25,108 bases of DNA from a virus. Taxonomy: Duplodnaviria > Heunggongvirae > Uroviricota > Caudoviricetes. How positions within the stretch are numbered: the first letter of the stretch is position 1; each line of letters begins with the position of its first letter. The stretch lies in the IMG/VR virus record IMGVR_UViG_2778261181_000003; one strand, 5' to 3'. This document shows positions 4,212 to 20,682 of this stretch, in pieces. The position numbers and the translations under genes are program-made. The notes beneath the pieces are model-generated. The model had not been told where the DNA came from. It was given only the letters and a program-made list of their open reading frames with translations, and made no database searches.

Positions 4212-5065
4212 GCACCATCCTGAAATGGGCGGGAAATAAAACCGCAATTATGTCCGAACTGAAAAAATACCTACCTGCTGGCCCGCGACTGGTTGAACCT
4301 TTCGCGGGTTCCTGTGCTGTGATGATGGAGACGGATTACCCCAGCTATCTGGTTGCGGATATTAATCCTGATTTAATCAACCTCTATAAAAAGATTGCCG
4401 CTGATTGCGAGGCGTTTATATCGCGGACCAGAACTTTGTTTGAGGAAGCAAACAGTGACCTAGCTTATTACAACATAAGGCAGGAGTTTAATTACTCAAC
4501 TGAAATTAATGATTTCATGAAAGCGATATATTTCCTGTATCTCAATCGTCATGGTTACCGTGGGTTATGTCGCTATAACAAGAGCGGGCATTTCAACATT
4601 CCCTACGGTAATTATAAAAATCCGTATTTCCCTGAAAAAGAAATTCGCGCATTTGCAGAAAAAGCCCAGCGGGCAACGTTTATCTGCGCCAGCTTTGATG
4701 AAACGCTGGCGATGTTGAAGGCGGGGGATGTGGTGTATTGCGATCCGCCGTATGACGGCACGTTTTCCGGTTATCACACTGACGGCTTCACTGAAGATGA
4801 CCAGTATCACCTGGCATCCGTTCTTGAATATCGATCATCAGAAGGTCATCCGGTCATTGTTTCTAACAGTGATACATCCCTGATCCGTTCGCTGTATCGC
4901 AATTTCACTCACCACTACATCAAGGCAAAACGCAGCATCGGCGTGTCAGCTGGCGAGAGTAAATCTGCAACAGAAATCATTGCTGTTTCCGGGTCGCGCT
5001 GCTGGATGGGATTTGATCCTTCGCGTGGCGTGGATAGTTCTGCTGTGTACGAGGTGCGTGTATGA
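4208..5065 (+). CDS. dam: DNA adenine methyltransferase, Dam family (N6-adenine MTase)
   Basis: N-terminal LKWAGNK motif (AdoMet binding) and catalytic DPPY motif in the translation; ATG at 4208 overlapping the upstream stop; 3' end overlaps the A gene start. Confidence 0.85.
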
Positions 5066-7476
5066 GTCATGACGATATGAGCAACTCTAGCGGCTTTAAC
5101 GAGGCTGCCGCAGCATTTTCATGGAACGGCCCGAAAAAGGCCATTAACCCTTATCTGGATCCGGCGGAAGTTGCGCCGGAGTCTGCACTTTCAAACCTGA
5201 TCACTCTGTACGCTGCCGATAACGAGCAGGAACAACTGCGCCGCGAGGCACTGAGTGAGCAGGTCTGGGAGCGTTATTTCTTTAATGAATCCCGTGATCC
5301 TGTCCAGCGCGAAATGGAGCAGGATAAGCTCATTAGCCGGGCAAAGCTGGCGCATGAGCAGCAGCGTTTTAACCCGGACATGGTCATTCTGGCAGATGTC
5401 AGCGCCCAGCCTTCTCATATCAGCAAGCCGCTGATGCAACGTATCGAATACTTCAGCAGCCTGGGCAGGCCAAAGGCTTATTCCCGCTATTTGCGTGAGA
5501 CGATTAAGCCATGTCTGGAGCGACTGGATTGTGTACGTGACAGTCAGCTATCTGTTTCTTTCCGTTTTATGGCAAGCCATCAAGGGCTGGAGGGGCTGCT
5601 GATCCTGCCTGAAATGAGCCAGGATCAGGTGAAACGCCTGTCCACCCTGGTAGCAGCGCATATGAGCATGTGTCTTGAGGCCGCTTGTGGTGATTTGTAC
5701 GCCACCGATGACGTTAAGCCAGAAGAAATCCGCAAGACATGGGAAAAGGTGGCTGCGGAAACCCTGCGTCTGGATGTTATCCCGCCTGCGTTTGAGAAAC
5801 TTCGTCGGAAAAGAAACCGCCGCAAACCTGTGCCCTATGAACTCATACCGGGTTCGCTGGCACGTATGCTTTGCGCCGACTGGTGGTATCGAAAATTGTG
5901 GAAGATGCGTTGCGAATGGCGGGAAGAGCAGTTGCGTGCTGTCTGTCTGGTCAGCAAAAAAGCATCTCCCTATGTCAGCTATGAAGCAGTGACGCATAAA
6001 CGTGAGCAGCGCCGCAAGTCGCTGGAGTTTTTCCGTTCTCATGAACTGGTGAACGAAGACGGAGACACGCTGGATATGGAAGATGTGGTAAACGCCAGCA
6101 GCAGCAACCCGGCACATCGCCGCAATGAGATGATGGCCTGCGTTAAAGGTCTGGAGCTTATCGCGGAAATGCGCGGTGACTGCGCCGTTTTCTACACCAT
6201 CACCTGTCCGTCACGTTTCCATTCCACGCTCAATAACGGCAGACCAAACCCGACCTGGACAAATGCGACGGTAAGACAAAGCAGTGATTATCTGGTCGGC
6301 ATGTTTGCTGCATTTCGTAAGGCGATGCACAAAGCCGGATTGCGGTGGTATGGCGTGCGGGTGGCTGAGCCGCATCATGACGGTACTGTGCACTGGCATC
6401 TCATGTGCTTCATGCGTAAAAAAGACCGCCGCGCCATCACTGCATTACTGCGTAAGTTTGCCATCCGTGAAGACCGCGAGGAACTGGGCAATAACACGGG
6501 GCCACGCTTTAAGTCTGAGCTGATTAACCCGCGCAAAGGAACGCCGACAAGCTACATCGCGAAATACATCAGTAAGAACATTGACGGGCGTGGTCTGGCT
6601 GGCGAGATCAGCAAGGAAACGGGTAAATCCCTGCGTGATAACGCTGAATACGTTAATGCCTGGGCGTCTCTGCATCGTGTTCAGCAATTCCGCTTCTTTG
6701 GCATTCCGGGGCGTCAGGCTTACCGTGAACTGCGATTGCTGGCTGGTCAGGCGGCAAGGCAGCAGGGTGACAAAAAAGCAGGTGCGCCGGTACTGGATGA
6801 TCCGCGTCTTGATGCCATTCTGGCTGCTGCTGATGCTGGCTGTTTTGCCACCTACATTATGAAGCAGGGCGGCGTGTTGGTTCCCCGCAAATATCACTTG
6901 ATCAGAACCGCTTATGAAATCAACGAAGAGCCGACCGCCTATGGTGATCACGGTATTCGTATTTATGGCATCTGGTCACCCATTGCAGAGGGCAAGATCT
7001 GCACTCATGCAGTGAAGTGGAAAATGGTTCGTAAGGCCGTTGACGTTCAGGAGGCGGCAGCCGACCAGGGCGCTTGCGCCCCTTGGACTCGTGGCAATAA
7101 CTGTCCCCTTGCTGAAAATTTGTACCAACAAGGGAAAGACAAATCAGCTGATGGAGATACCAGAACGGATATCACCCGTATGGATGACAAGGAGTTGCAC
7201 GATTACCTGCACAGTATGAGCAAAAAAGAGCGCCGGGAACTGGCAGCAAGGTTACGCCTGGTGAAACCGAAACGGCGTAAAGACTACAAACAGCGAATTA
7301 CAGATCATCAGCGACAGCAGCTCGTGTATGAACTGAAGTCCAGGGGATTTGATGGCAGCGAGAAAGAGGTCGATTTACTCCTTCGCGGCGGCAGTATTCC
7401 GTCAGGAGCAGGCCTGCGTATCTTCTATCGGAACCAGCGTTTGCAGGAAGATGATAAGTGGCGGAACCTGTATTAA
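5062..7476 (+). CDS. A: Replication initiation endonuclease A (rolling-circle initiator, P2 gpA-like)
   Basis: 804-aa protein with HUH-type motif ([13 protein letters not shown]) and paired-tyrosine motif ([10 protein letters not shown]) as in the phiX174 A / P2 A superfamily; position after the early genes matches P2/186. Confidence 0.85.
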
Positions 7477-8205: not shown

Positions 8206-10065
8206 TTAGTGAGGGCTGGTTATTACGTAGTCGCTCTGGTCATCCTCTCCCAGCCTCTCAGGTATTAAATCGTTGAAGGAAATAGTATTACTCTTAGGTT
8301 TTTCTTCAATTGGAAGTTCAGCTACCCTTAATTTGAGCGGCATGGGGCAGACGATACCACTAAAAATACAGGTTCCTGTAGATAGCGTTGGAATCGACTC
8401 TTCAGTCAGTCGATCTATATATGATACTGATTTTTCAATTGCGTACAGATCATTCTGATTAATAAGGCGATGAATAAAATAATTGTGTGCTTGGGATATG
8501 ATTGTCGACGATATATCATTAGGGCGTTGACTGGAAATTGTGATAAAAACTCCAAATTTTCTCCCCTCCTTTATGATTTCCTCAAAAGTTTCCAGACGAT
8601 AATCTCTCCAACTTTCCGTTTCCCGAAAAGAAGTATTAGACAAAATATTGTGGGCTTCATCTATAATGATGTGCAGTGTAGATTTCTCTGTAGACATTTT
8701 CTTCATATTGTAAGCCCACTTGGCTATCAAAAGAGGAAGCGTTTTTTTCATGGTTATATTAACCATATTTAGATTCACAACCGTGAAATTATGTTCACCC
8801 CAAAAGTCAGACTGTCCGGAAGTATCAAATATTTTGGCTATATCTTTACGGTTAGCACTCATTCTATTTATAACTGGTGAAATATGTTCAGGGTTAGACT
8901 TGTTAGATAAATATTCCTGTATTAACTGTAAGTACATAAAGTCCAACAGTTCTTCAATCATATCAGTTTTAAATGAAAAATTGCTTGCAAGACTGAATAG
9001 ATAGGAGCGCTCAGTATCAGCTTCTGTATTGAAAATACTACCACCCCTCAATTTCCATTTATATGCAGTTGAATGATACTCAAGATCAGATATAAGTTCT
9101 GGGTCATCTTTGAAAATTGGGCTAAGAAACTGATTTATAGTATCGCATTTGGGTTTGTCGCTACTAAAGAGATTTTGTCTGACTTTTTTCTTCAGGATAT
9201 TGCGCATAAACTCAAGAGGATTATCAGCAGTCATCACTTTCTTGCGAAACTCAAGAACTCTCTTCAGGAAAGGTTTCTGTGTTTTGTCTGTTGCATCGGT
9301 TAGAACTGAGAGCATATCATGCTCAAGTAGAACCTCTCTGGGTAGAGGAAGTTTGTCACCATTTGCATGGTGCGTGTTGAGATTATAAACCGTCTTCTCG
9401 TCAGTAATACAGCGTGGGGCAGTATATTCTCCATTAAAGTCGAATAGAATAAATTTGCATCTTTCACTAAAGTGGTTGCCGAGAATATGTTTAACTTGGG
9501 CAATACCTGCTTTGTATAGCGCGGCTAGGGTATTTGACTTTCCGCTGCCTGTATTACCGAAAATGGCAATGTGGGAATTAATAAGACCATTGATTGGTAG
9601 TGCAATTTCAATATCTTCAAGATCTGTACGAGTAAACCTCATTACAGTTTCGTCTGCATCAGCTATCTGATGAACCGTCTGTATCATCTCTTCAGTTACC
9701 ACGAAGACTTCATTGCCGATGAGAGGTAGTTCACGCGAACCACCAATGAAGCAACCAGTACGATCAATGTAACCCGTAAGAGTAGAGGTCAGGTATCGCC
9801 GATATCGCCAGGCATCACTGCCGCTCCCAGCGAGATGTTTTTCCTCAATGATTCGTTCCGCTTCAACCTTGCCGATCAGGCTCATGAAACCTTTTTTGAT
9901 CTCAATGAAGCTACCCACTGATACATTTCTTAGAACTTTTCCCTGATAAAACAAGTCACTGAGATTTTTGTTTTTATCGACCAAAATTGTCACAGCGCGT
10001 CCAGAAACCTCACAGACTTCGCCTATACGGAGCACCGCTTCCTCTTCAGTAAAATGCCTGCTCAT
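8206..10065 (-). CDS. HerA-like ATPase (FtsK/HerA superfamily), partner of SIR2 in a SIR2-HerA anti-phage system
   Basis: Walker A GNTGSGKSNT and Walker B HIIIDEAHNI in the translation; ATG at 10063-10065 overlaps the SIR2 stop (ATGA) with GGGAGG RBS; AT-rich relative to the phage backbone. Confidence 0.8.
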   Translation of the reverse strand: MSRHFTEEEAVLRIGEVCEVSGRAVTILVDKNKNLSDLFYQGKVLRNVSVGSFIEIKKGFMSLIGKVEAERIIEEKHLAGSGSDAWRYRRYLTSTLTGYIDRTGCFIGGSRELPLIGNEVFVVTEEMIQTVHQIADADETVMRFTRTDLEDIEIALPINGLINSHIAIFGNTGSGKSNTLAALYKAGIAQVKHILGNHFSERCKFILFDFNGEYTAPRCITDEKTVYNLNTHHANGDKLPLPREVLLEHDMLSVLTDATDKTQKPFLKRVLEFRKKVMTADNPLEFMRNILKKKVRQNLFSSDKPKCDTINQFLSPIFKDDPELISDLEYHSTAYKWKLRGGSIFNTEADTERSYLFSLASNFSFKTDMIEELLDFMYLQLIQEYLSNKSNPEHISPVINRMSANRKDIAKIFDTSGQSDFWGEHNFTVVNLNMVNITMKKTLPLLIAKWAYNMKKMSTEKSTLHIIIDEAHNILSNTSFRETESWRDYRLETFEEIIKEGRKFGVFITISSQRPNDISSTIISQAHNYFIHRLINQNDLYAIEKSVSYIDRLTEESIPTLSTGTCIFSGIVCPMPLKLRVAELPIEEKPKSNTISFNDLIPERLGEDDQSDYVITSPH

Positions 10066-11105
10066 CTCGAGCCTCCCAGATAGCACGTGATAATGTTATT
10101 CATTACCGGAAAATCAACATTTCTTCCCGGCCGATAAATAATCTCTACGTTTGAGTAATCCCGAAATTTCTCCATAAAGCCGTTAACACTGGCCTCATCG
10201 AAAGCAAAGATCAGTAGCTTCAGGGTGGCGTTGCGCAGGGCTTTTTTAGTTATCGTTTCAATGTGCTCATCAGCAAACGAGAACCCAAAGACAATTAGTA
10301 AAGTTGCTTCTTTATCAAGCTCGTTGGAATAGGTTCTCAGTAAATCATAATAAACGTTCTGTAGTAGAGTCTCTTTAAACTTCTCCTTACGTGGAAGAAT
10401 AAGTGCATGAGCAAGTACCCATCCTTTCATTTCGGCTAGGGTGGGAAAGTCAAGCGGCTTAATATCTGCAATACGATAAATGATTTTCCCTTTAGAATGC
10501 TGCCAAGAGAGCGAACCATGAAGTTTTATAAGGTTAACAGTAGGAAGCTCAACTTTATAATTATACAGATTTCCGGTTGCACTTACAGAATGATTAAAGC
10601 TACCCGCATCAAATTCCGCATCTCCCAAAATACTTGCTCTTCTATTGAATCCATCATTAAAAAGAATATTGTTATTACGTGTGGCAGCTTCTTCGATGAA
10701 TAAATCATAATTAGTTGTAAAAACGTTAATACGCCTCGGAAGTAGGCCAGTTCGGCGGCGGGTCAGTATCTTTTCCAGTGAAGACATAAATGCATCATAA
10801 TTTGCACGGGTACATTCCAAATCGGTGATCACCTGAGGTGCGAAGGGGGTGCCGTAGCCGCGCTTCAACATGCATTCATGAGGTAGCCAAACATCTGACA
10901 AAAAGTCAGCTGCCATCCTTAAGTATTCATCTTCCTGTTCATCATTAATAAGCTGCTGAAGATCCGTTTCGATTGTCCCCAGTACTTTAATCGCTGGGAG
11001 GGATGCACCTGATCCGATGAGAAAGTTAATGTTAGCTGACTGAAATATCCGCTCTAAGTAGTCTCGGTCACTATCGTTACCGTAGTATGCGCGCTTGACT
11101 GCCAT
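10062..11105 (-). CDS. SIR2-domain protein (predicted NADase effector) of a SIR2-HerA anti-phage system
   Basis: Translation shows glycine-rich NAD-binding loop FLIGSGAS, the SIR2 TNYD motif (VFTTNYD) and a downstream KLHGS histidine; ATG at 11103-11105 with AAGGA RBS; immediately upstream of and coupled to the HerA gene. Confidence 0.8.
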   Translation of the reverse strand: MAVKRAYYGNDSDRDYLERIFQSANINFLIGSGASLPAIKVLGTIETDLQQLINDEQEDEYLRMAADFLSDVWLPHECMLKRGYGTPFAPQVITDLECTRANYDAFMSSLEKILTRRRTGLLPRRINVFTTNYDLFIEEAATRNNNILFNDGFNRRASILGDAEFDAGSFNHSVSATGNLYNYKVELPTVNLIKLHGSLSWQHSKGKIIYRIADIKPLDFPTLAEMKGWVLAHALILPRKEKFKETLLQNVYYDLLRTYSNELDKEATLLIVFGFSFADEHIETITKKALRNATLKLLIFAFDEASVNGFMEKFRDYSNVEIIYRPGRNVDFPVMNNIITCYLGGSR

Positions 11106-11529
11106 CTTATCCTTCCACAAAACATTGGATTAGTCTGTAATTTATTTAATCTTAACGCCGAGCTCAATACTTTAACATCACTTCTTCTGGCGATTGCTAT
11201 GAGCCCTTCTTGATAAAAAGTTCGATCGGGAAACTGATCCTTTATGCCACAAGTTTTCTAGCTATCCTCAAAAAATTGGTGTTAAAACTGTGCCAACAAA
11301 GTTGCAAGGTTCGCTTCTCGCTCACAGCGAACTTTCATCTTTGTAAACCCGTATGATTCGCTTTTCAGCAGTCATTCAGATACGGATTTACGCTTCCCTT
11401 GGCAGCGCATGACTATGACGCATGAGATCGCATGATCGTTTGAGGATCGTTTTTGCTGAAGTCAGCCAGAACTGGCGTGCTTTTGCTTATGTCATGCAGG
11501 TGCATGAAAACCACTACATAAAGCGGGCA

Positions 11530-11674: not shown

Positions 11675-12736
11675 ATGCTTAAAACAAATAAGGTATTTAT
11701 TGACACACAAACGTACGTAAAGGCTGGTCTTCATTTTGAGGGGGTAGCATTTAAAGCTTTCCATGAATTATGTGCGAAAGGTGATTTAGTCTTAATTACA
11801 ACTACAGTTGTAGAGAGAGAAGTAAAAGGTAAAATAGAGGAATCAATAAAGGATGCTCTGCAGGCTATAAACACAGTACAAAGAAAAGCTAGGCTTTTGA
11901 ATAGTATTGATAATGGACCGCTCCATGGTTTTTTTCAGCAATTTAACGAACATGAAATTCACGAAGCAGCACAAAAAGTTTTTGATGATTTTTTGAAAGG
12001 ATGTCACGCCAAATTAGCTACAATAGAAGTGATAGATCTTAATGAGGTTTTAGATAAATACTTTGGCAAAGAACCACCATTTGGGCAAAATAAGAAAAAA
12101 AGTGAGTTTCCTGATGCAATCACTTTAGCTGCGGTAGAGCGATTTGTTAATGATGAAGATGTGTATATCATTTCTGAGGATAGTGACTTAAAAAATTATT
12201 GTGATGGTAAAAACAATCTTCATCAAATTGATTCACTTGATAAGTTTCTAGGTGAATACAATACGCATACAAACGAATTAAGTAATAAATTGATGCAGTT
12301 TATCGAAAGCAAACGTGAAGACATAAGAGCGGACGTAATTGCCCAACTCAATGATGCCGATGGATATAACGTTTCAACTTGGGAAGACGCTGAATTGGAT
12401 TCATTTGAAGTCGTCAATATTGATGACTTTGAACCATCAATAATTAAGATTGACAATAATTATTGTCTAGCGACCTTCTCTGTTTCTGTAGATTTTGAAG
12501 TTACTGTTTCTGGTCCAGACTTTAATAATGGGTATTGGGATAGCGAAGATAAAGTAATGATTCCAATGGAGACAACCACACGAACTGAAGTTCAAGAGAT
12601 TAGTTTCGATATTGAAATTGAAGTTATGTATGAAATCGAGGATGGTGAATTAACAGATATCGCATTTGATGTGAATATTGATAAGTTATCCCGAGGGATT
12701 GAGTTCTCTATTGAAGAAAATAATTTTGAATATTAA
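11675..12736 (+). CDS. PIN-like nuclease-domain protein with acidic C-terminal domain of unknown function (353 aa); candidate defence or abortive-infection gene
   Basis: N-terminal half has a PIN-type acidic-residue pattern (KVFIDTQTY, VVEREV, EFPDAITLAAVERF, VYIISEDSDL); C-terminal about 170 aa is D/E-rich and beta-like; very AT-rich gene with its own 550-bp upstream region and a strong downstream terminator. Confidence 0.7.
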   Translation: MLKTNKVFIDTQTYVKAGLHFEGVAFKAFHELCAKGDLVLITTTVVEREVKGKIEESIKDALQAINTVQRKARLLNSIDNGPLHGFFQQFNEHEIHEAAQKVFDDFLKGCHAKLATIEVIDLNEVLDKYFGKEPPFGQNKKKSEFPDAITLAAVERFVNDEDVYIISEDSDLKNYCDGKNNLHQIDSLDKFLGEYNTHTNELSNKLMQFIESKREDIRADVIAQLNDADGYNVSTWEDAELDSFEVVNIDDFEPSIIKIDNNYCLATFSVSVDFEVTVSGPDFNNGYWDSEDKVMIPMETTTRTEVQEISFDIEIEVMYEIEDGELTDIAFDVNIDKLSRGIEFSIEENNFEY

Positions 12737-12745
12737 TTCGTTCAT

Positions 12746-12777
12746 AACGGCATCATTGTGATGCCGTTGGGTTTTAT
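12746..12777 (+). terminator. Rho-independent terminator after the PIN-like gene
   Basis: Perfect 10-bp stem AACGGCATCA / TGATGCCGTT with 3-nt loop, followed by GGGTTTTAT; overlaps the stop codon of the convergent portal gene. Confidence 0.6.
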
Positions 12778-13799
12778 AATGTATATATTTCAAAATTTAT
12801 AATTTCATGACCAAGCCATCTGTTTATTTCCATGAATCTTTTTTGAAGTGGTAATAGTTCATTTCTTACGAAGACGCAGCTCGCCTTCTCCACATCACCA
12901 AAACCCCCAACATTATTCGGCAAAATTCCCATCATCTGAGGCGGTACGCGGTGTGCCGCCATCATGTCATCACGGCTGACGTTCTTGATGTTCAGAAATT
13001 CATCCTTCGCCGCGACTTCTGACAACGGGATGATCTGAAGCCCGTCCTTTTTGCCGTTAGGCGAGTACATAAACAGGTTGCGGAAGTTGCCAGGGCCTTT
13101 GGCGCTTTTCATCGCATTGCGGAGGTTGTTCACATCCTCCTGGTTCTGCGCGGCATCGGTCATGTACATGATGAAGCCTGCATGGCTGCCGTTAATGTAA
13201 TACTTCCGGCGGAACAGCGTGGCGGACTCGTTGAGCAGGGCTGACGGAATGGCAGAAAGATAACCTGGTAGGCCGTAGATCTCCTGGTTGATGTCAGGTT
13301 CCATCAGATGAAAAATGCTGCCTTTCGTGAACTGATACGGCTGGGTTGTCATACCGTATTGCACAAACCAGTAGGTATCCAGGTCTAACCCGCGTCGGGT
13401 GTATTTTGCCAGAGCAGGCTCAAGGGCGATAACTTCACCGAAGCGGTTCGTGCGTTTCTCCAGGTAGGCGTTACCAAATACCAGATAGTCCTGCACAAAA
13501 CGTGAAAAAGCCTGCTGGCTGAGCAGCGGGTGAGGGATGTAGGTACTGGTCAGAATGTTGCATTTCACCGCAATTGGTGAGCTGTGATGCACGGCGGCGC
13601 GGAAGGTTCGTGCCAGTCCGTCAAAGCTGACGGGCGGCTCATACCAGCGATCCATCTGTACGCATTCCACATAGTCCAGCAGTTCACGGCGGTCCAGAAC
13701 AGGAACGGGATCGCCAAAGCTGAATGCTTCGGCTGAAGTTTGGCTTTTATGCTTGAGCTGATTCGTCGCCGCAGCGCGGTTTTTCTTACTCTTTCCCAT
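12774..13799 (-). CDS. Q: Portal protein (P2 gpQ-like)
   Basis: 341 aa from ATG 13797-13799, which overlaps the terminase stop (ATGA); size and position match P2 Q, transcribed leftward after P toward cos. Confidence 0.85.
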   Translation of the reverse strand: MGKSKKNRAAATNQLKHKSQTSAEAFSFGDPVPVLDRRELLDYVECVQMDRWYEPPVSFDGLARTFRAAVHHSSPIAVKCNILTSTYIPHPLLSQQAFSRFVQDYLVFGNAYLEKRTNRFGEVIALEPALAKYTRRGLDLDTYWFVQYGMTTQPYQFTKGSIFHLMEPDINQEIYGLPGYLSAIPSALLNESATLFRRKYYINGSHAGFIMYMTDAAQNQEDVNNLRNAMKSAKGPGNFRNLFMYSPNGKKDGLQIIPLSEVAAKDEFLNIKNVSRDDMMAAHRVPPQMMGILPNNVGGFGDVEKASCVFVRNELLPLQKRFMEINRWLGHEIINFEIYTL

Positions 13800-15565
13800 C
13801 AAAAAATCTCCACAATATTGCTGGTATTGGCGGACTCGCCCTGCAGCGGTTCATTAAACAGTGCGTGCATTGTTGCCCAGGCCAGATCGGCGTGGCTGGC
13901 TTCTTCGCTGCGGCTGGCTTCATAGGTCGGGCGGTTGCCGCTGGCAGTGGTGGCGCGACGGATTGCCATAAAGGACTGCGCTATGTCGGTGTGCCCTGCG
14001 TCAAACTCCAGGCGGCGGTGGCTAATAATGTCGTAGGCCTTGAGTACCAGGGCGTTTTTAACGTTGGGGTTGTAGACAAACTCCCGGACGGCAGGAAAAA
14101 ACGCTTTCACGTTCTCGTAAACCCCGTGACCGACGCCGGTTGAGTCGATACCGATGTATGTCACGTTGTACTGTTCGGTCAGTTTTTTGATGGCGTCAGC
14201 CTGGGCGCGGAAGTCCATCCCGCGCCACTGGTGACGTTCAAGAATGCGAAACTTACCGCCTGGCACGGCTGGCGGTGCCACCACCACGCATCCGGCGCTG
14301 TCGCCGTTCTGCGTACCTTTTGCCGGGTCATAACCGATCCACACTTCGCGCCAGCCAAACGGGCGCAGGGCCAGTGCATGAAAGTCGCTCCAGACTTCCC
14401 AACTGTCCACCATGCACGCCTGCAGCTCGCTGAGCGGGAACACGGACGCGAGATCGTCCACAAACTCGCACATCAGCAGGTTCTGGTATTCGTCCGGGCT
14501 GTACTCCATGCGCAACTGATCGAGGTCGAAAAGGTTACATCCGCCGCGCACTGCATCTTCCACGGTGACTATCTGGCGGTATTGCCCGTCTGCGCACAGC
14601 AGGCCGGGGGCCAGATTGCTGTGGGACAGGTCGATGTCCACCTTATCGGCTTTGTTGCGCCCACGGTTGAACAGCGCACCAGACCAGAACGGATAAGCAC
14701 TGTGTGTCAGGCTGGATGGCGTGGAAAAATAGGTTTGTCGCCATTTTTTGTGAATAGCCATACCGGAAGCCACTTTGCGCAGCTCCTGGAATTTCGGTAT
14801 CCAGAAATATTCATCCAGATACAGGTTGCCGTGATAACTCTGGGCAGTGCGGGCATTGGTGCCGAGGAAGTAAAGCGTGGCCCCGTTAGGAAGCACCATC
14901 GGATCGCCTTTCAGCTCCACCTCGACTTCTTTGGCGAAGTCGATGATGTATTGCTTAAAGACGTGAGCCTGTGCCTTACTGGCAGAAAGGAAAATCTGGT
15001 TACGTCCGGTAAGCAGGGCGTCAATCAGGGCTTCACGGGCAAAGTAAAAGGTCGCGCCGATCTGGCGTGACTTCAGCAGATTACGGATGCGGTTGGTTTT
15101 TCCAGCTTCCCACCAGTGGCGCTGGTAGTTGAACATGGAGGAATGGAAGATTTCTTCCAGCTTCTCAATCTGTTCATCGGTGAAAACATTCTTTTCCGGC
15201 TGACGGCGCGGCCCTTTGTTGCGGTTGGCGACGTTAGGGTTTAAGTCGGCTTCGTTGCCGCCATTGTTAAACTTGCCGATCCGCGCGTGGCGCTCCGACT
15301 GGCGTGCCAGCAGGTCAATTTCTTTGAAATCTTTCCCTTCTTTGTGCTCCTTCATAATGAGCTGGCAATAGCGTGCGGCGGTGGTGAGCTGCATCTGATC
15401 CAGCGGCCCATAGTCACCCCACTTGTCGCGTTTTTTCCAGCTGTGAACGGTTGCAACTTTCTCGCCCAGCATTTCAGCAATGCGGGCTACGCGGTATCCC
15501 TGAAAGTACAGCAGCATGGCCTGCCGACGGGGATCGAGATCTGCGGGTGTCAGTGTGGTGTTCAT
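13799..15565 (-). CDS. P: Terminase large (ATPase) subunit (P2 gpP-like)
   Basis: 588 aa (P2 P is about 590); ATG at 15563-15565; divergent from the O gene as in P2. Confidence 0.9.
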   Translation of the reverse strand: MNTTLTPADLDPRRQAMLLYFQGYRVARIAEMLGEKVATVHSWKKRDKWGDYGPLDQMQLTTAARYCQLIMKEHKEGKDFKEIDLLARQSERHARIGKFNNGGNEADLNPNVANRNKGPRRQPEKNVFTDEQIEKLEEIFHSSMFNYQRHWWEAGKTNRIRNLLKSRQIGATFYFAREALIDALLTGRNQIFLSASKAQAHVFKQYIIDFAKEVEVELKGDPMVLPNGATLYFLGTNARTAQSYHGNLYLDEYFWIPKFQELRKVASGMAIHKKWRQTYFSTPSSLTHSAYPFWSGALFNRGRNKADKVDIDLSHSNLAPGLLCADGQYRQIVTVEDAVRGGCNLFDLDQLRMEYSPDEYQNLLMCEFVDDLASVFPLSELQACMVDSWEVWSDFHALALRPFGWREVWIGYDPAKGTQNGDSAGCVVVAPPAVPGGKFRILERHQWRGMDFRAQADAIKKLTEQYNVTYIGIDSTGVGHGVYENVKAFFPAVREFVYNPNVKNALVLKAYDIISHRRLEFDAGHTDIAQSFMAIRRATTASGNRPTYEASRSEEASHADLAWATMHALFNEPLQGESANTSNIVEIF

Positions 15566-18365: not shown

Positions 18366-18830
18366 ATGAAGTTTGTTGCGCCAGAACAGGCACCGGAACA
18401 GGCGGAAATCATCAGAAATACGCCGTTCTGGCCTGATGTGGACCTGTCGGAGTTTCGCAGTGTGATGCGCACTGACGGCACGGTGACGCAGCCGCGTTTA
18501 AAGCAGGTTGCGCTGTCGGCAATTTCGGAGGTCAACGCAGAGCTGTATGAGTTTCGCAGGCGCCAGCAGGTGCTGGGGTATGCCTCGCTGGCAGAGGTTC
18601 CGGCGGAACAGCTGGACGGCAAAAGTGAGCGCATTCAGCACTATTTCAACGCGGTTTACTGTTGGGCACGCGCCATGCTCAACGAACGATACCAGGACTA
18701 TGACACCACGGCATCCGGTGTGAAGCGGGGCGAGGAACTGGCAGAAGCCAGCGGTGATTTGTGGCGTGACGCCCGCTGGGCCATCAGCCGGGTACAGGAC
18801 GCGCCGCACTGCACAGTGGAGCTTATCTGA
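18366..18830 (+). CDS. L: Head completion/stabilisation protein (P2 gpL-like)
   Basis: ATG at 18366 with AGGAGAAAG RBS (the track ORF starts upstream at a non-ATG codon); 154 aa; stop overlaps the X start. Confidence 0.8.
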   Translation: MKFVAPEQAPEQAEIIRNTPFWPDVDLSEFRSVMRTDGTVTQPRLKQVALSAISEVNAELYEFRRRQQVLGYASLAEVPAEQLDGKSERIQHYFNAVYCWARAMLNERYQDYDTTASGVKRGEELAEASGDLWRDARWAISRVQDAPHCTVELI

Positions 18831-19033
18831 TGAAAGTGCGTGCGCATCAGTATGACACGGTGGACGCGCTTTGCTGGCGTCATTACGGGCGCACGCAGGG
18901 TGTCACGGAGCAGGTACTGAAGGCAAATCCGGGGCTTGCCGAATACGGCCCCTTTTTACCTCACGGGCTGCAGGTGGAGCTGCCGGACATTCCGACTACC
19001 ACCACTGTGCAGACCGTCCAGCTATGGGACTGA
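18830..19033 (+). CDS. X: Tail protein X (P2 gpX-like, 67 aa)
   Basis: 67 aa, identical in length to P2 X and in the conserved position between L and the lysis genes. Confidence 0.8.
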   Translation: MKVRAHQYDTVDALCWRHYGRTQGVTEQVLKANPGLAEYGPFLPHGLQVELPDIPTTTTVQTVQLWD

Positions 19034-19036
19034 ATT

Positions 19037-19252
19037 ATGACGCTTGAGCGAATCAGCGCCTTTATCACGTATTGCATCGCCGTCGTGCTGGCCTGGCTGG
19101 GCGATTTGTCCATCAAGGATGCCTCAACGCTGGGCGGCCTGATGATCGGTGTGCTGATGCTGGCTATCAACTGGTACTACAAACACAAAGCCTACCAGCT
19201 TCTGCGCGACGGGCAGATCTCGCGGGAGGACTATGAATCCATCAATCGTTAA
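19037..19252 (+). CDS. Holin (71 aa, two predicted transmembrane helices; pinholin-like)
   Basis: Two hydrophobic segments (ISAFITYCIAVVLAWLG and LGGLMIGVLMLAINWYY) followed by a charged C-terminus; immediately upstream of and overlapping the endolysin gene. Confidence 0.65.
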   Translation: MTLERISAFITYCIAVVLAWLGDLSIKDASTLGGLMIGVLMLAINWYYKHKAYQLLRDGQISREDYESINR

Positions 19253-19745
19253 ACGCTGCCTTGTCGGGGCCGTGCTGGCTATTGCTGCCACGCTGCCGGG
19301 GTTTCAGCAGCTTCACACCTCCGTGGAGGGGCTGAAACTGATCGCCGATTACGAAGGCTGTCGTCTGCAGCCGTATCAGTGCAGCGCGGGTGTCTGGACC
19401 GACGGCATTGGTAATACGTCGGGCGTCATTCCCGGCAAAACTATTACGGAACGACAGGCAGCAGAAGGGCTGATCTCCAACGTACTACGTGTGGAGCGGG
19501 CGCTGGAAAGGTGTGTGAAGCAACAGCCGCCGCAGAAGGTGTATGACGCTACGGTGTCGTTTGCCTTCAACGTGGGGACGGGCAATGCCTGTAGTTCCAC
19601 GCTGGTGAAATTGCTCAATCAGCGGCGCTGGGCGGATGCGTGCCGACAGTTGCCGCGCTGGGTTTATGTCAAAGGTGTGTTTAATCAGGGGCTGGATAAC
19701 CGCCGTGCGCGGGAGATGGCCTGGTGTTTACAGGGAGCAAACTGA
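19233..19745 (+). CDS. Endolysin, T4-lysozyme-like (GH24) with SAR-like N-terminal segment
   Basis: Catalytic-region pattern EGLKLIADYEG ... GVWTDGIGNT typical of lambda R / T4 E type lysozymes; N-terminal weakly hydrophobic Gly/Ala-rich stretch CLVGAVLAIAATLPG. Confidence 0.8.
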   Translation: MNPSIVKRCLVGAVLAIAATLPGFQQLHTSVEGLKLIADYEGCRLQPYQCSAGVWTDGIGNTSGVIPGKTITERQAAEGLISNVLRVERALERCVKQQPPQKVYDATVSFAFNVGTGNACSSTLVKLLNQRRWADACRQLPRWVYVKGVFNQGLDNRRAREMAWCLQGAN

Positions 19746-19746
19746 A

Positions 19747-20124
19747 ATGAAAAAGAAAGTAATTAGCGGGCTGTTTCTGATGTTATGGATGGCGCTGTTA
19801 ATCGCAGCAATGGTGTATCCGCAGGGGATTTTTCCGGTACTGGCAGCGTCCGGCGTTTGGGTAGCCTGTTTGCTGACATGGGCGGTAATTCCGGTAGCAC
19901 TGGCTGCGTTAATTAAGAATGGCCCGCTCTGGCAGGAGTTAAGGGCATCTTTACTGAAGACAATTACCCGAAAAGAAAACGTATTTATCAGTTGGGTGAT
20001 GCGATTGCTGATTGTTGTAAGTCTCGCCTGGACGGGGTGGGCTATTACCCTGGTCTTTTATCTGCTGACCGTTATTGCCTTCTGGATCACCCGTAATCAG
20101 ATGGCGCAACAGGTAGCAGCATGA
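19747..20124 (+). CDS. lysA: LysA-like membrane protein (lysis timing), 125 aa
   Basis: ATG at 19747 with GGGAG RBS; multiple hydrophobic helices; position equals P2 lysA. Track ORF 19636 starts further upstream inside the endolysin gene. Confidence 0.6.
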   Translation: MKKKVISGLFLMLWMALLIAAMVYPQGIFPVLAASGVWVACLLTWAVIPVALAALIKNGPLWQELRASLLKTITRKENVFISWVMRLLIVVSLAWTGWAITLVFYLLTVIAFWITRNQMAQQVAA

Positions 20125-20549
20125 ATCGGTTGCTGCTGGTTGTGCTGGCGTTATTACTGGCTGCGCTGGGCTGGCAGACGTGGCGGCTGGCTGATGCCAG
20201 CCAGACCATCAGCACGCAGGCAGACGAGCTTCGGAGCAAAAGCCAGGCACTGGCAAAGAGCAACAGCCAGCTGATCAGCCTGTCCATTCTGGCTGAAACC
20301 AATAACCGGGAGCAGGCGCGGCTCTATGCCAAAGCAGAACAGACCAGCGCACTGCAGAGACAACGACAACGCCGGATCGAGGAACTGAAACGTGAGAACG
20401 AGGATTTACGCCGCTGGGCTGATACTCCTTTGCCTGCTGACATTATCCGGATGCGGGAACGCCCCACACTCACCGGAGGTGCAGCTTACCGTCAGTGGTT
20501 GTCCGCGAGTGACGCCGTGTCGGCTGGATCAGGCAACGCTGCGCACTAA
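20121..20549 (+). CDS. lysB: LysB, Rz-like inner-membrane spanin
   Basis: N-terminal TM helix then a coiled-coil-like region rich in Q/R/E/L; ATG overlaps the lysA stop (ATGA). Confidence 0.7.
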   Translation: MNRLLLVVLALLLAALGWQTWRLADASQTISTQADELRSKSQALAKSNSQLISLSILAETNNREQARLYAKAEQTSALQRQRQRRIEELKRENEDLRRWADTPLPADIIRMRERPTLTGGAAYRQWLSASDAVSAGSGNAAH

Positions 20550-20682
20550 CGGTGATCTGAACGCGTTGCTGGATGAAACGGAGGCCGCCTGGGCGGTCTG
20601 TGCAGACAAAGTAGACATGATTATTGCGTGTCAGGAGCGAAACAGTGAACAAACCACAATCCCTGCGCCACGCCATCAATAA
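20392..20682 (+). CDS. lysC: LysC, Rz1-like outer-membrane lipoprotein spanin (overlaps lysB in another frame)
   Basis: Lipobox-like LLTLSGC signal sequence; begins inside lysB in the +1 frame and extends past it, as with P2 lysB/lysC. Start is GTG at 20392 as given in the track, so the start is uncertain. Confidence 0.5.
   Translation: MRTRIYAAGLILLCLLTLSGCGNAPHSPEVQLTVSGCPRVTPCRLDQATLRTNGDLNALLDETEAAWAVCADKVDMIIACQERNSEQTTIPAPRHQ

Follow-up and report, generated by a model that had tools for sequence, protein, structure and literature searches.

A lysis cassette in a P2-like late operon

The window (the whole stretch of 25,108 nucleotides that was analysed, from a tailed-phage record in IMG/VR) carries its lysis genes behind a tail gene. 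The genes and the features discussed below are:

18830-19033, plus strand: gpX tail protein, the upstream neighbour (PF05489 Phage_tail_X, E = 2.2e-34; 61% identity to P2 X)
19037-19252, plus strand: holin gene, 71 aa, an ORF assigned to class II and to the HP1 holin family
19052-19102, plus strand: predicted transmembrane domain (TMD) 1 of the holin, residues 6-22 (ISAFITYCIAVVLAWLG); strongly hydrophobic by hydropathy and not SAR-like
19121-19180, plus strand: predicted TMD2 of the holin by hydropathy, residues 29-48; small-residue motif S30xxxG34xxxG38, then NWYYK
19233-19252, plus strand: overlap of 20 nt between the holin 3' end and the endolysin 5' end, read directly from the sequence
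19233-19745, plus strand: endolysin gene, 170 aa (PF00959), assigned to the T4-lysozyme-family muramidases, P1 Lyz subclass
19251-19304, plus strand: predicted signal-anchor (SAR) segment by hydropathy, K7 R8, then C9-F24 (CLVGAVLAIAATLPGF), including the putative regulatory Cys9
19353-19400, plus strand: catalytic and regulatory motif E41-G-C43-x6-C50-x5-T56 (Glu-8X-Cys-5X-Thr), from alignment A3
19747-20124, plus strand: LysA homologue, 125 aa, four predicted TMDs (phrog_162, E = 7e-39; NF038378, 123.5 bits; 25% identity to P2 LysA)
20121-20549, plus strand: LysB, i-spanin (Rz-like), 142 aa, N-terminal TMD (TIGR03495 phage_LysB, 169.6 bits; phrog_89; 31% identity to P2 LysB)
20392-20682, plus strand: LysC, o-spanin (Rz1-like) lipoprotein (NF038368 P2_Rz1, 122.7 bits; PF23793, E = 6.9e-15; 42% identity to P2 LysC)

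The holin and endolysin ORFs were both found where the sequence-only reading had placed them. The ATG of the endolysin is located 20 nt inside the holin gene and follows a Shine-Dalgarno sequence, GGGAGG, at 19224-19229. Annotations of KP12, 500465-1, EtG, the Yersinia phages and HP1 show the two genes overlapping in this way. At the other end of the cassette, lysC is read in the +1 frame relative to lysB, overlaps it and extends into gene R; the alignment with P2 suggests the GTG at 20392 as its start, and its lipobox, LSGC, could be read directly from the sequence. The TIGR03495 score of LysB and the NF038368 score of LysC both exceed the cut-offs, which identifies the two as a P2-type spanin pair.

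Many endolysin-LysA fusions of 296 aa are found in the protein database, and a programmed frameshift was considered as their origin. This was rejected, because the shift positions differ (P0013, P0018). A 1-nt deletion anywhere in the last ~110 nt of the endolysin gene joins a frame that is open from 19636, and thus the fusions are indels or pseudogenes.

The ORF and family assignments of the cassette reflect strong homology and not chance composition. They point to the late operon of a P2-like prophage (Peduoviridae, Wadgaonvirus/Felsduovirus-like) as the host of the cassette. This is in agreement with the sequence-only reading, which had placed the genes in a P2-like late operon together with LysA and the LysB/LysC spanins; the family matches and the identities to the P2 proteins are consistent with it. 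The first two lysis genes differ. Neither the holin nor the endolysin gave a significant BLASTP match to P2 Y and K, and the holin profile, aligned with P2 Y as a negative control, reached an hhalign probability of 2.9%. P2 Y (93 aa, PF04550) has three hydrophobic segments, i.e. it is a class I holin, and P2 K has neither an N-terminal TMD nor a PF00959 match. The canonical module of a PF04550 three-TMD holin and a soluble lambda R-like endolysin is thus not what the window encodes, as had been proposed. In P2 and 186, this slot of the late operon, flanked by X and lysA/lysB, is taken by Y and K. Since the two window proteins are unrelated to Y and K, while X, LysA, LysB and LysC are homologous to those of P2, the first two lysis genes are a module replacement. 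Going by these relationships, the Y/K module appears to have been replaced by an HP1-family holin and a P1 Lyz-type SAR endolysin, with LysA and LysB/LysC retained.

The endolysin and its N-terminal anchor

The endolysin matches PF00959 (Phage_lysozyme) with E = 4.4e-40 and is, by BLASTP, 37% identical to P1 Lyz and 34% identical to HP1 Lys. Its best match by sequence among solved structures is P1 Lyz (1XJT, E = 2e-26), with an alignment that begins at residue 13, inside the anchor. The AlphaFold model of the endolysin (pLDDT 92.7) has its best fold match in the same structure, the active, full-length form of P1 Lyz (TM 0.85/0.82), and the three best fold matches are all SAR endolysins (1XJT, DLP12 RrrD and full-length R21). 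With 1XJU, the inactive form of P1 Lyz without the SAR domain, the TM score was just 0.58. The alignments with P1 Lyz and R21 that the sequence-only reading had called for, with P1 Lyz ranking first by both sequence and fold, therefore support its assignment of the protein to the SAR endolysins.

E41, C43, C50 and T56 are invariant in our alignment of endolysin relatives (A3) and align with E42, C44, C51 and T57 of P1 Lyz, in the spacing of the E-8X-C-5X-T triad (defined in PMC3556154). P1 Lyz (1XJT/1XJU), the prototype of the SAR endolysins controlled by disulfide isomerisation, shares with the window protein the T4-lysozyme fold, this triad, a second Cys two residues past the Glu and a Cys in the anchor. 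C9, C43 and C50 are the counterparts of its C13, C44 and C51, so that the endolysin possesses the cysteine set which P1 Lyz uses for disulfide-isomerisation control. HP1 Lys, a P1 Lyz-like SAR enzyme, has the same set (C11, C49, C56). In R21, by contrast, the triad has Asp instead of Cys, and regulation is by refolding and not by disulfide exchange. From sequence and model, the endolysin thus appears to be a SAR enzyme of the disulfide-regulated P1 Lyz subclass and not of the R21 subclass. It differs from P1 Lyz in having a shorter anchor (KR-C9...L21 compared with T5-G24), with the Cys right at the cytoplasmic boundary, and in lacking the P1 Lyz insertion of ~12 residues, which aligns between window residues 116 and 117.

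The N-terminus of the endolysin begins with MNPSIVKR, containing two basic residues, and continues with an uncharged hydrophobic stretch of 13-16 residues, CLVGAVLAIAATL(PGF). About half of this stretch (~47%) is G/A/T, and its best 13-residue Kyte-Doolittle mean is 2.5. Its hydropathy is comparable to that of the P1, HP1 and R21-like anchors, but it is shorter than these. The weakly hydrophobic, Gly/Ala-rich N-terminus that had been described from the sequence was thus recovered. In A3, each of the 17 relatives whose N-terminus is intact has a Cys aligned with Cys9, down to 36% identity. In a survey of ECC-motif proteins, sampled as 150 representatives clustered at 50% identity, a Cys was located within the N-terminal TM segment in 26 of the 29 distinct proteins possessing such a segment; the other three appear to be truncated at the N-terminus. 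A reading of the KRC motif as a lipoprotein signal was rejected, as the residues ahead of Cys9 form neither a hydrophobic region nor a lipobox.

Alternatively, the N-terminus could be a cleavable Sec signal peptide, and the endolysin a soluble periplasmic enzyme kept in check by the C43-C50 disulfide or the energised membrane. The hydrophobic core is short (13 residues, C9-L21), signal peptides typically have a basic n-region such as K7, R8, and A16-I17-A18 fits the -3/-1 rule, with A-[IL]-A recurring in relatives. A precedent exists in T4 RI, which was once called SAR and for which a cleavable signal peptide was subsequently reported (PMC9636201). However, the AxA motif lies in the middle of the stretch, the hydrophobic run goes on for 3-6 residues beyond it, and the same AIA motif is present in the SAR domain of P1 Lyz. 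That domain is reported to be retained, uncleaved, in the mature enzyme (Xu et al. 2004). Furthermore, Cys9 lies inside the segment and yet is kept in all intact relatives that have the C43/C50 pair, which would be hard to explain if the segment were discarded. In the AlphaFold model residues 10-26 (pLDDT >90) are packed as short helices on the catalytic domain, and the best match, full-length active P1 Lyz, likewise holds its released SAR domain within the fold. The KP12 homologue ran at its full-length size of 18.6 kDa (PMC9902359), a weak argument given the resolution of SDS-PAGE. We therefore consider cleavage of the N-terminus very unlikely. By analogy with the characterised homologues we infer that the anchor would be Sec-dependent and uncleaved and that the enzyme would undergo disulfide isomerisation.

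Family and topology of the holin

The holin scores 36.7 bits on PF16080 (HP1 family, holin superfamily II), above the gathering cut-off of 28.8; HP1 Hol itself scores 84.6 bits. With PF04971 (P21 S) it reached 23.2 bits, which is below the gathering cut-off of 26. It matches the holin family phrog_20 with E = 1.9e-26, the source databases label its cluster 'HP1 family phage holin', and a search of NCBIfam gave no match. As the identity to HP1 Hol is 21%, with a BLASTP alignment that is not significant and an hhalign probability of 36%, the relationship between these two proteins rests on profiles. From the profile evidence the holin can be classified as a member of the HP1 class II holin family (PF16080).

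The holin ORF has a single ATG. An in-frame start upstream of it is absent because the gpX stop codon sits 3 nt before the ATG, and a dual-start antiholin motif is missing from the window holin. The topology was derived with custom hydropathy scripts based on the position-independent Hessa scale and the Kyte-Doolittle scale. They gave two hydrophobic segments, the second spanning 29-45/48 (ASTLGGLMIGVLMLAIN, reaching WYY), and no third TMD in the 71 residues, matching the two TM helices that had been predicted. The loop between the TMDs, DLSIKD, is short and acidic (net charge -1), and the C-terminal tail is charged, with 5 basic and 4 acidic residues. An AlphaFold monomer of low confidence (pLDDT 69.5, pTM 0.37), used solely for helix boundaries, has two helices, 3-21 and 26-57, which are interrupted at 22-25.

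The alignment with the phage 21 pinholin S21 that the sequence-only reading had suggested could be obtained at the profile level. Using an S21 query that matches the phage 21 record at 100% identity, the holin family profile was aligned with hhalign at a probability of 93.9% (E = 1.6e-7) over 50 columns comprising both TMDs. In TMD2, G34/G38 lie over S44/G48 of S21, and N45 lies over N55. The glycine-zipper residues of S21 are G40/S44/G48. G34 and G38 are invariant in the alignment of holin relatives (A4), and S30xxxG34xxxG38 is a small-residue motif of the glycine-zipper-like kind which TMD2 of S21 also carries (PMC9025707). Both holins have two TMDs and 68-71 aa (S21 68/71), and they have in common an N-terminal (D/E)(K/R)IS motif, the periplasmic loop S-x-x-D/Q, the small-residue spacing in TMD2 and the membrane exit N-(W/L)-Y-(Y/F)-K. 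In phage 21, the holin gene is directly upstream of that of the SAR endolysin R21, as in the window. These similarities suggest that the window holin is a remote homologue of S21.

The difference lies in TMD1. In S21 this is a Gly/Ser/Ala-rich SAR domain that exits the membrane (PMC7278021), with a Hessa sum of +6.2 and 65% G/A/S/T, whereas in the window holin the corresponding values for TMD1 are -0.56 and 35%. It is also 6 residues shorter than TMD1 of S21, and the Gly/Ser/Ala-rich stretch GSAGYW of S21 is missing from it in the hhalign alignment. In HP1 Hol, TMD1 is weakly hydrophobic (+3.88). A second difference concerns the start: S21 has a dual start, one product being the antiholin S21 71, and a single start is present in the window holin. 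Given a TMD1 of such hydrophobicity and without SAR character, we do not count the holin, by mechanism, among the S21-type pinholins. Exit of TMD1 from the membrane, the activating step in S21, is therefore not evident in the window holin, and the S21 mechanism is not simply transferable. Of the proposed pair of pinholin and SAR endolysin, the SAR-type endolysin and the two-TMD holin with probable remote homology to S21 hold up, but TMD1 does not have the character that an S21-type pinholin would imply. Neither a soluble or classically cleaved endolysin N-terminus nor a holin with three TM helices was found.

Linkage to SAR endolysins and the mode of lysis

A genome scan with the holin profile (A4) revealed an EGC...C lysozyme with a KRC/KNC anchor directly downstream of the holin in each of the 30 loci that could be evaluated, which come from different species. 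In IMG/VR the holin was paired with a KRC/KNC-anchored lysozyme at 78 of 80 loci; all of these copies have identical holins, so that they give no information on diversity but demonstrate that the pair is very common. Of the 78, one is frameshift-truncated after the anchor; the other two of the 80 loci yielded no holin or downstream ORF. The pairing extends to divergent lineages with 23-37% holin identity, i.e. the Yersinia Duonihilunusvirus, the EtG/MHG75 Eganvirus group, and the lambdoid YenM_21.09 and mEp515, in which the partner is an R21-type SAR endolysin. HP1 likewise pairs its holin with a SAR endolysin. No member of the holin family paired with a soluble endolysin was found among the 30 species loci and the divergent lineages. 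In every lineage examined, the holins of this family are thus encoded beside a SAR endolysin.

LysA is less constant. In a manual tally of 25 scorable species loci, the holin-lysin pair was followed by a LysA-like ORF in ~14 and directly by LysB in ~11, and LysA is also absent from the Yersinia relatives and phage 186. This bears on the idea that the 71-aa protein is an antiholin and the four-TMD LysA the true hole-former. LysA is a polytopic membrane protein encoded directly after the endolysin, and PHROGs places it in the lysis category. Yet the pair is kept where LysA is missing, and the 71-aa protein has the hallmarks and family matches of a holin. The annotation of P2 lysA describes a nonessential gene with an effect on lysis timing only, and its product is regarded as an antiholin (PMC3091744). 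This arrangement is therefore extremely improbable. By analogy with the antiholin-like protein of P2, LysA would rather be an accessory lysis-timing protein.

Taken together, we consider it quite likely, by analogy with the characterised systems, that a replaced module of an HP1-family holin and a P1 Lyz-type SAR endolysin carries out pinholin-type lysis. The term pinholin for this holin is a likely inference. A SAR partner is no proof of pinholes, because SAR endolysins also work with large-hole holins such as P1 LydA and lambda S/S105 (PMC9025707). Hence the endolysin could be combined with a conventional class II large-hole holin, which aggregates in a raft-like manner with both TMDs staying in the membrane, the endolysin being released upon depolarisation. 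TMD1 of the window holin has the hydrophobicity of a stable TMD and exceeds TMD2 in this respect (-0.56 versus +1.94), the Gly/Ser/Ala-rich insertion that makes TMD1 of S21 releasable is missing, and the PF04971 match is below threshold; canonical holins and pinholins alike cooperate with SAR endolysins (PMC9025707). The low confidence of the heptamer model of the identical holin in the KP12 study (pLDDT 50.8; PMC9902359) also counts against pinholin-type lysis. On the other hand, the probable remote homology to S21 covers both TMDs including the small-residue motif of TMD2, and the HP1 holin, prototype of the family, did not leak beta-galactosidase (PMC7312051). The lack of a soluble partner in any family member examined is what would be expected if cytoplasmic enzymes could not be released. 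We thus regard large holes as unlikely.

A tentative and rather unlikely interpretation is that the holin is a pinholin distinct from S21, with a stable TMD1 anchor and timing by LysA, and that the KR-Cys anchor of the endolysin is a minimal SAR domain whose metastability is based on length. There would then be no S21-style exit of TMD1 at triggering and no dual-start antiholin, the timing being set in trans. LysA, which is common to Y/K-type P2 cassettes, would be a regulator independent of the holin type, and the marginal length of the anchor, not its Gly/Ala content, would make the endolysin metastable.

In pinholin-type lysis by the replaced module, the course of events would be the following, with the steps taken from characterised homologues. 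During late expression, Sec would insert the endolysin as a type II membrane protein with K7/R8 in the cytoplasm and the C9-L21 helix spanning the membrane. In this tethered form the enzyme would be inactive, its catalytic Cys50 being locked in a disulfide with Cys43. Meanwhile the holin, its two termini in the cytoplasm, would build up in the inner membrane and do no harm. At the programmed time it would oligomerise via TMD2 (S30/G34/G38), and the resulting lesions, probably small and of pinholin type, would collapse the proton-motive force. Upon depolarisation the anchor helix would leave the bilayer and Cys9 would attack the C43-C50 disulfide, freeing Cys50; the released N-terminal segment would refold onto the catalytic domain. 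The active endolysin would then degrade the murein all round the cell, and LysB/LysC would disrupt the outer membrane. LysA, if present, would tune the timing.

An experimental parallel is Haemophilus phage HP1 (Peduoviridae, Hpunavirus), a P2-like phage whose Hol and Lys behave as a pinholin and a Sec-dependent SAR endolysin (PMC7312051). As in the window, hol and lys overlap, the holin belongs to PF16080 and there is no dual-start motif; the low holin identity, the weakly hydrophobic TMD1 and the absence of LysA set HP1 apart. In P1, lyz precedes the gene of its pinholin LydD, and the unlinked large-hole holin LydA is also used (PMC9025707). Pinhole assays (lambda R complementation, leakage) have been done for S21, HP1 Hol and P1 LydD (PMC7312051, PMC9025707, PMC9636201).

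The gene pair as such has already been described and is common and widespread in P2-like phages, so there is nothing new in it. All five genes of the cassette occur in unchanged order in contig KP12_3 of Klebsiella phage KP12 (peg.316-320), Klebsiella phage 4LV2017, Escherichia phage 500465-1 (Peduoviridae, Wadgaonvirus) and the Salmonella prophage Fels-2, and the Klebsiella and E. coli phages have 96.8-97.4% nucleotide identity to it over 1.87 kb. In KP12 the holin is 100% and the endolysin 98% identical, essentially no difference at the sequence level. The KP12 paper noted that the P1 Lyz SAR domain is conserved in peg.319, with a model at TM 0.83 to 1XJT; as pinholin candidate its authors preferred peg.280, by the confidence of an AlphaFold heptamer (PMC9902359). 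Phage Midge is annotated with the same reading of holin and endolysin. In Fels-2, the record has '2 transmembrane domains; putative holin' beside an endolysin 'similar to Lyz [phage P1]', the start of which is annotated 13 codons too far downstream, so that the anchor is removed.

No new question is raised by the cassette, the pathway having been worked out in P1, 21 and HP1; the one point of interest concerns triggering, which in HP1-family holins with such a hydrophobic TMD1 may differ from that of S21. The main value lies in a correct annotation: "lysozyme" here would denote a membrane-tethered enzyme with a predicted thiol-disulfide regulation, and the small protein encoded upstream of it in this prophage family, labelled "secretory protein" or "hypothetical protein", would be the holin. 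This affects expression as an enzybiotic, since the anchor and Cys9 of the endolysin would influence toxicity, solubility and activation. The cassette also illustrates the modular exchange of holin and endolysin inside an otherwise conserved P2 late operon.

Lysis genes within a P2-like late operon

The lysis genes of the window form one run directly behind the gpX tail gene, and the endolysin ATG lies 20 nt within the holin gene, preceded by a GGGAGG ribosome-binding site. A sequence-only reading had placed LysA and the LysB/LysC spanins in a P2-like late operon. All three are present, LysB and LysC by their profile matches; only the start proposed for LysA was wrong, the real one being at 19747.

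Features of the window
18830-19033, + strand: gpX tail gene, directly before the lysis gene run
19037-19252, + strand: holin, 71 aa; PF16080 (HP1 family), 36.7 bits (cut-off 28.8); phrog_20
19233-19745, + strand: phage lysozyme (endolysin), 170 aa; PF00959, E = 4.4e-40
19747-20124, + strand: LysA-like protein, 125 aa; phrog_162, NF038378
20121-20549, + strand: LysB, 142 aa; TIGR03495
20392-20682, + strand: LysC, embedded +1-frame ORF; NF038368
within 8206-11120, - strand: HerA, 626 aa; PDLC04097, 885 bits
within 8206-11120, - strand: SIR2, 352 aa; PDLC04080, 698 bits

The 1.87-kb lysis stretch is 96.8-97.4% identical to Klebsiella and E. coli P2-like phages, including 4LV2017, 500465-1 (Peduoviridae, Wadgaonvirus) and KP12 contig 3, and 80-90% identical to Salmonella Felsduovirus phages. 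Compared with P2, identities are 61% for X, 42% for LysC, 31% for LysB and 25% for LysA, whereas P2 Y and K have no significant similarity to the window holin and endolysin (holin family profile against Y in hhalign: probability 2.9%). P2 Y is a 93-aa PF04550 protein with three hydrophobic segments, and P2 K has neither a hydrophobic N-terminus nor a PF00959 match; phage 186 is also of the Y/K type. Since the flanking genes match P2 and the holin and endolysin are unlike Y and K, the first two lysis genes are, judged by sequence, a module replacement within a conserved P2-like operon. The view that the canonical P2 pair is not used here was thus correct. That P2-like phages swap holin-endolysin modules with one another has been described before (PMC3091744).

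Elsewhere in the window, the region flanked by the replication gene (5062-7476) and the portal gene (12774-13802) carries two cargo genes on the - strand (8206-11120), both very strong matches to the anti-phage defence pair SIR2-HerA. The adjoining 353-aa ORF (11675-12736, + strand) gave no PADLOC match.

The endolysin and its N-terminal anchor

The endolysin begins with MNPSIVKR, followed by CLVGAVLAIAATLPGF. Its best match by sequence among solved structures is P1 Lyz (1XJT; E = 2e-26), with the alignment starting within the hydrophobic segment; the identities to P1 Lyz and HP1 Lys are 37% and 34%. In the AlphaFold model built from 20 relatives (pLDDT 92.7), residues 10-26 form short helices packed on the catalytic domain, with pLDDT above 90. 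The top three fold matches of this model are all signal-arrest-release (SAR) endolysins, namely full-length active P1 Lyz (TM 0.85/0.82), DLP12 RrrD and full-length R21, whereas the inactive SAR-less form of P1 Lyz (1XJU) reached a TM of merely 0.58. C43 lies two residues past the catalytic Glu and C9 within the anchor, and the cysteine set has its counterparts in C13, C44 and C51 of P1 Lyz. There the catalytic Cys is disulfide-locked until the released SAR domain provides a thiol that isomerises this bond (PMC3556154, citing Xu et al. 2005).

Among relatives down to 36% identity E41, C43, C50 and T56 never vary, and every relative with an intact N-terminus (17/17) has C9. The best 150 representatives from a search of 1.84 billion proteins included 29 distinct proteins combining an N-terminal hydrophobic segment with the E-C-C motif; 26 have a Cys in that segment, and the remaining three, which have no residues ahead of the hydrophobic part, appear to be truncated. 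Several lines of evidence, i. e. sequence, predicted fold, cysteine set and conservation, place the window endolysin with the SAR endolysins, as had been proposed.

That the N-terminus is instead a cleaved signal peptide appears very improbable. Two points speak for cleavage: the hydrophobic core is short (13-16 residues), and an A16-I-A18 motif obeys the signal-peptidase rule. Yet this motif sits midway through the hydrophobic core, and P1 Lyz has the same AIA in its SAR domain. The strongest argument against cleavage is the conservation described above, although such assignments can be mistaken, as with T4 RI (PMC9636201).

In the Fels-2 record (NC_010463; 15545-16060, - strand) the endolysin is annotated from an internal Met as a 158-aa protein. 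This start leaves out MNPSIVKRCLVV, the basic residues and the Cys by which the anchor takes part in regulation; upstream extension recovers the complete SAR N-terminus. The same record breaks LysA into two small hypothetical ORFs.

The protein database also contains dozens of 296-aa endolysin-LysA fusions and one 235-aa holin-endolysin fusion (proteins P0013, P0018, P0001). A 1-nt deletion anywhere within the final ~110 nt of the endolysin gene opens the frame into lysA (19636-20124, +1 relative to the endolysin). Programmed frameshifting is disfavoured because the shift site differs between P0013 and P0018, and the fusions appear to stem from indels (sequencing or assembly) or from prophage decay. 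Nevertheless, P0013 is found on 30 contigs.

The holin and its partner gene

Residues 6-22 and 29-48 of the holin are hydrophobic, with an acidic loop between these two segments and a charged C-terminus. A low-confidence AlphaFold model consists of two long helices with a break at residues 22-25, and neither this model nor the hydrophobic segments gave a third transmembrane domain (TMD), which bears out the two-helix topology read from the sequence. Identity to HP1 Hol is 21%, not significant pairwise; both proteins match PF16080, and at the level of sequence families the window holin is a distant HP1-family member.

The window-family profile aligned with S21 (query matching the Escherichia phage 21 record at 100% identity) across both TMDs (hhalign, probability 93.9%, E = 1.6e-7). 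Both holins have an N-terminal (E/D)(R/K)IS motif, the loop, an N-W/L-Y-Y/F-K membrane exit and small-residue spacing in TMD2, with window G34/G38 on S21 S44/G48 and window S30 one turn ahead. The glycine-zipper region aligned with G34/G38 is implicated in pinhole formation in S21 (PMC9025707). In TMD1 the two proteins differ. In S21 it is a SAR domain rich in Gly, Ser and Ala (Hessa-scale sum +6.2, 65% G/A/S/T) which exits the bilayer on activation (PMC7278021), whereas in the window holin it has six residues fewer and is strongly hydrophobic (-0.56, 35%), even beyond TMD2 of the same protein. The window holin also has a single start with one Met. Because of this TMD1 and the single start we do not count it, mechanistically, among the S21-type pinholins. 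The pinholin assignment of the sequence-only reading therefore stands as probable, for an HP1-family class II holin with two TMDs and a remote likeness to S21, but without an S21-like TMD1.

Dual-start-like N-termini that recall the antiholin/holin motif of S21 and lambda occur in holin relatives, in the forms MGLKMEK, MKMEK, MMTLER and MMMSIER (relatives' loci L007 1995-2216, L010 2001-2216, L107/L108/L114/L116/L122); YenM_21.09 has MKM and YenM_06.16-2 has MGLKM. Presence of the LysA gene did not correlate cleanly with a missing dual start.

A pinholin can serve solely endolysins that reach the periplasm unaided, and the partner gene was therefore checked wherever the holin family occurs. 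Across different bacterial species, the next gene was a K(R/N)C-anchored EGC...C lysozyme in 30/30 loci that could be evaluated (holin identity 51-100%). The same pairing was found in 78 of the 80 IMG/VR loci, once frameshift-truncated past the anchor; from the other two neither holin nor downstream ORF was recovered. Divergent relatives in Yersinia Duonihilunusvirus and in the EtG/MHG75 Eganvirus group (holin identity 23-37%) have a P1-type SAR enzyme too, as does HP1, and in the lambdoid YenM_21.09 and mEp515 the partner of a related holin is a SAR endolysin of the R21 type. No soluble-endolysin partner was found across the species loci, the IMG/VR loci and the divergent relatives examined. 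One holin 100% identical to that of the window, an enterobacterial prophage holin, lies on a 3.2-kb 'Bacillota bacterium' MAG contig (JAEWTL010000006.1), almost certainly a binning contaminant.

SAR endolysins also function with large-hole holins, e. g. P1 LydA and lambda S (PMC9025707), which favours the main rival explanation, namely that the window holin makes large holes. We consider this unlikely and prefer the pinholin.

LysA, earlier reports and the proposed lysis route

LysA was present in ~14 of 25 scorable species loci by our own tally. Missing from many loci that keep the holin-endolysin pair, it is an accessory protein and not the hole-former, in agreement with the P2 record ("nonessential; affects timing") and with PMC3091744, where it is treated as an antiholin. 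LysA is a membrane protein with four TMDs and no enzyme domain, and the label 'endolysin' in phrog_162 (PHROGs) and derived RefSeq records (window 19747-20124; relatives' loci L008 2709-3140 and L003 1010-1435) is a propagated misannotation.

As an inference from raw sequence the earlier reading was good overall; the cassette itself is ordinary and nothing of substance about it is new. The Fels-2 record lists "2 transmembrane domains; putative holin" adjoining an endolysin similar to P1 Lyz. The 2023 KP12 paper aligned a protein 98% identical to the window endolysin to 1XJT, found the P1 Lyz SAR domain conserved and considered a 71-aa protein identical to the window holin as a possible pinholin (PMC9902359). 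Use of a pinholin and SAR endolysin was shown by experiment for HP1, which is likewise P2-like (PMC7312051), and the annotation of Midge, another P2-like phage, lists a class II holin and a SAR endolysin (PMC12697156).

The KP12 record (OM835953.1, clone KP12_3) is filed under Vequintavirinae. Its contig (34.8 kb), however, is the genome of a P2-like phage (Peduoviridae) and shares 96.8% identity with the window lysis region, and the paper counts 397 genes and describes two distinct lysis cassettes (PMC9902359), suggesting that the preparation was a phage mixture or contained an induced prophage.

The present analysis shows the family membership, the cysteine set, the likeness in structure and the linkage of the pair; the need for Sec, an uncleaved anchor, the exchange of thiols and the size of the holes are carried over from P1, phage 21 and HP1. 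On this basis the most likely route to lysis would be as follows. The endolysin would be exported by Sec, tethered by its short anchor and kept inactive through the C43-C50 disulfide, while the holin builds up. Triggering of the holin would depolarise the membrane, the anchor would leave the bilayer, C9 would isomerise the disulfide and the enzyme would refold. Murein would then be broken down across the whole cell surface, before LysB/LysC disrupt the outer membrane.
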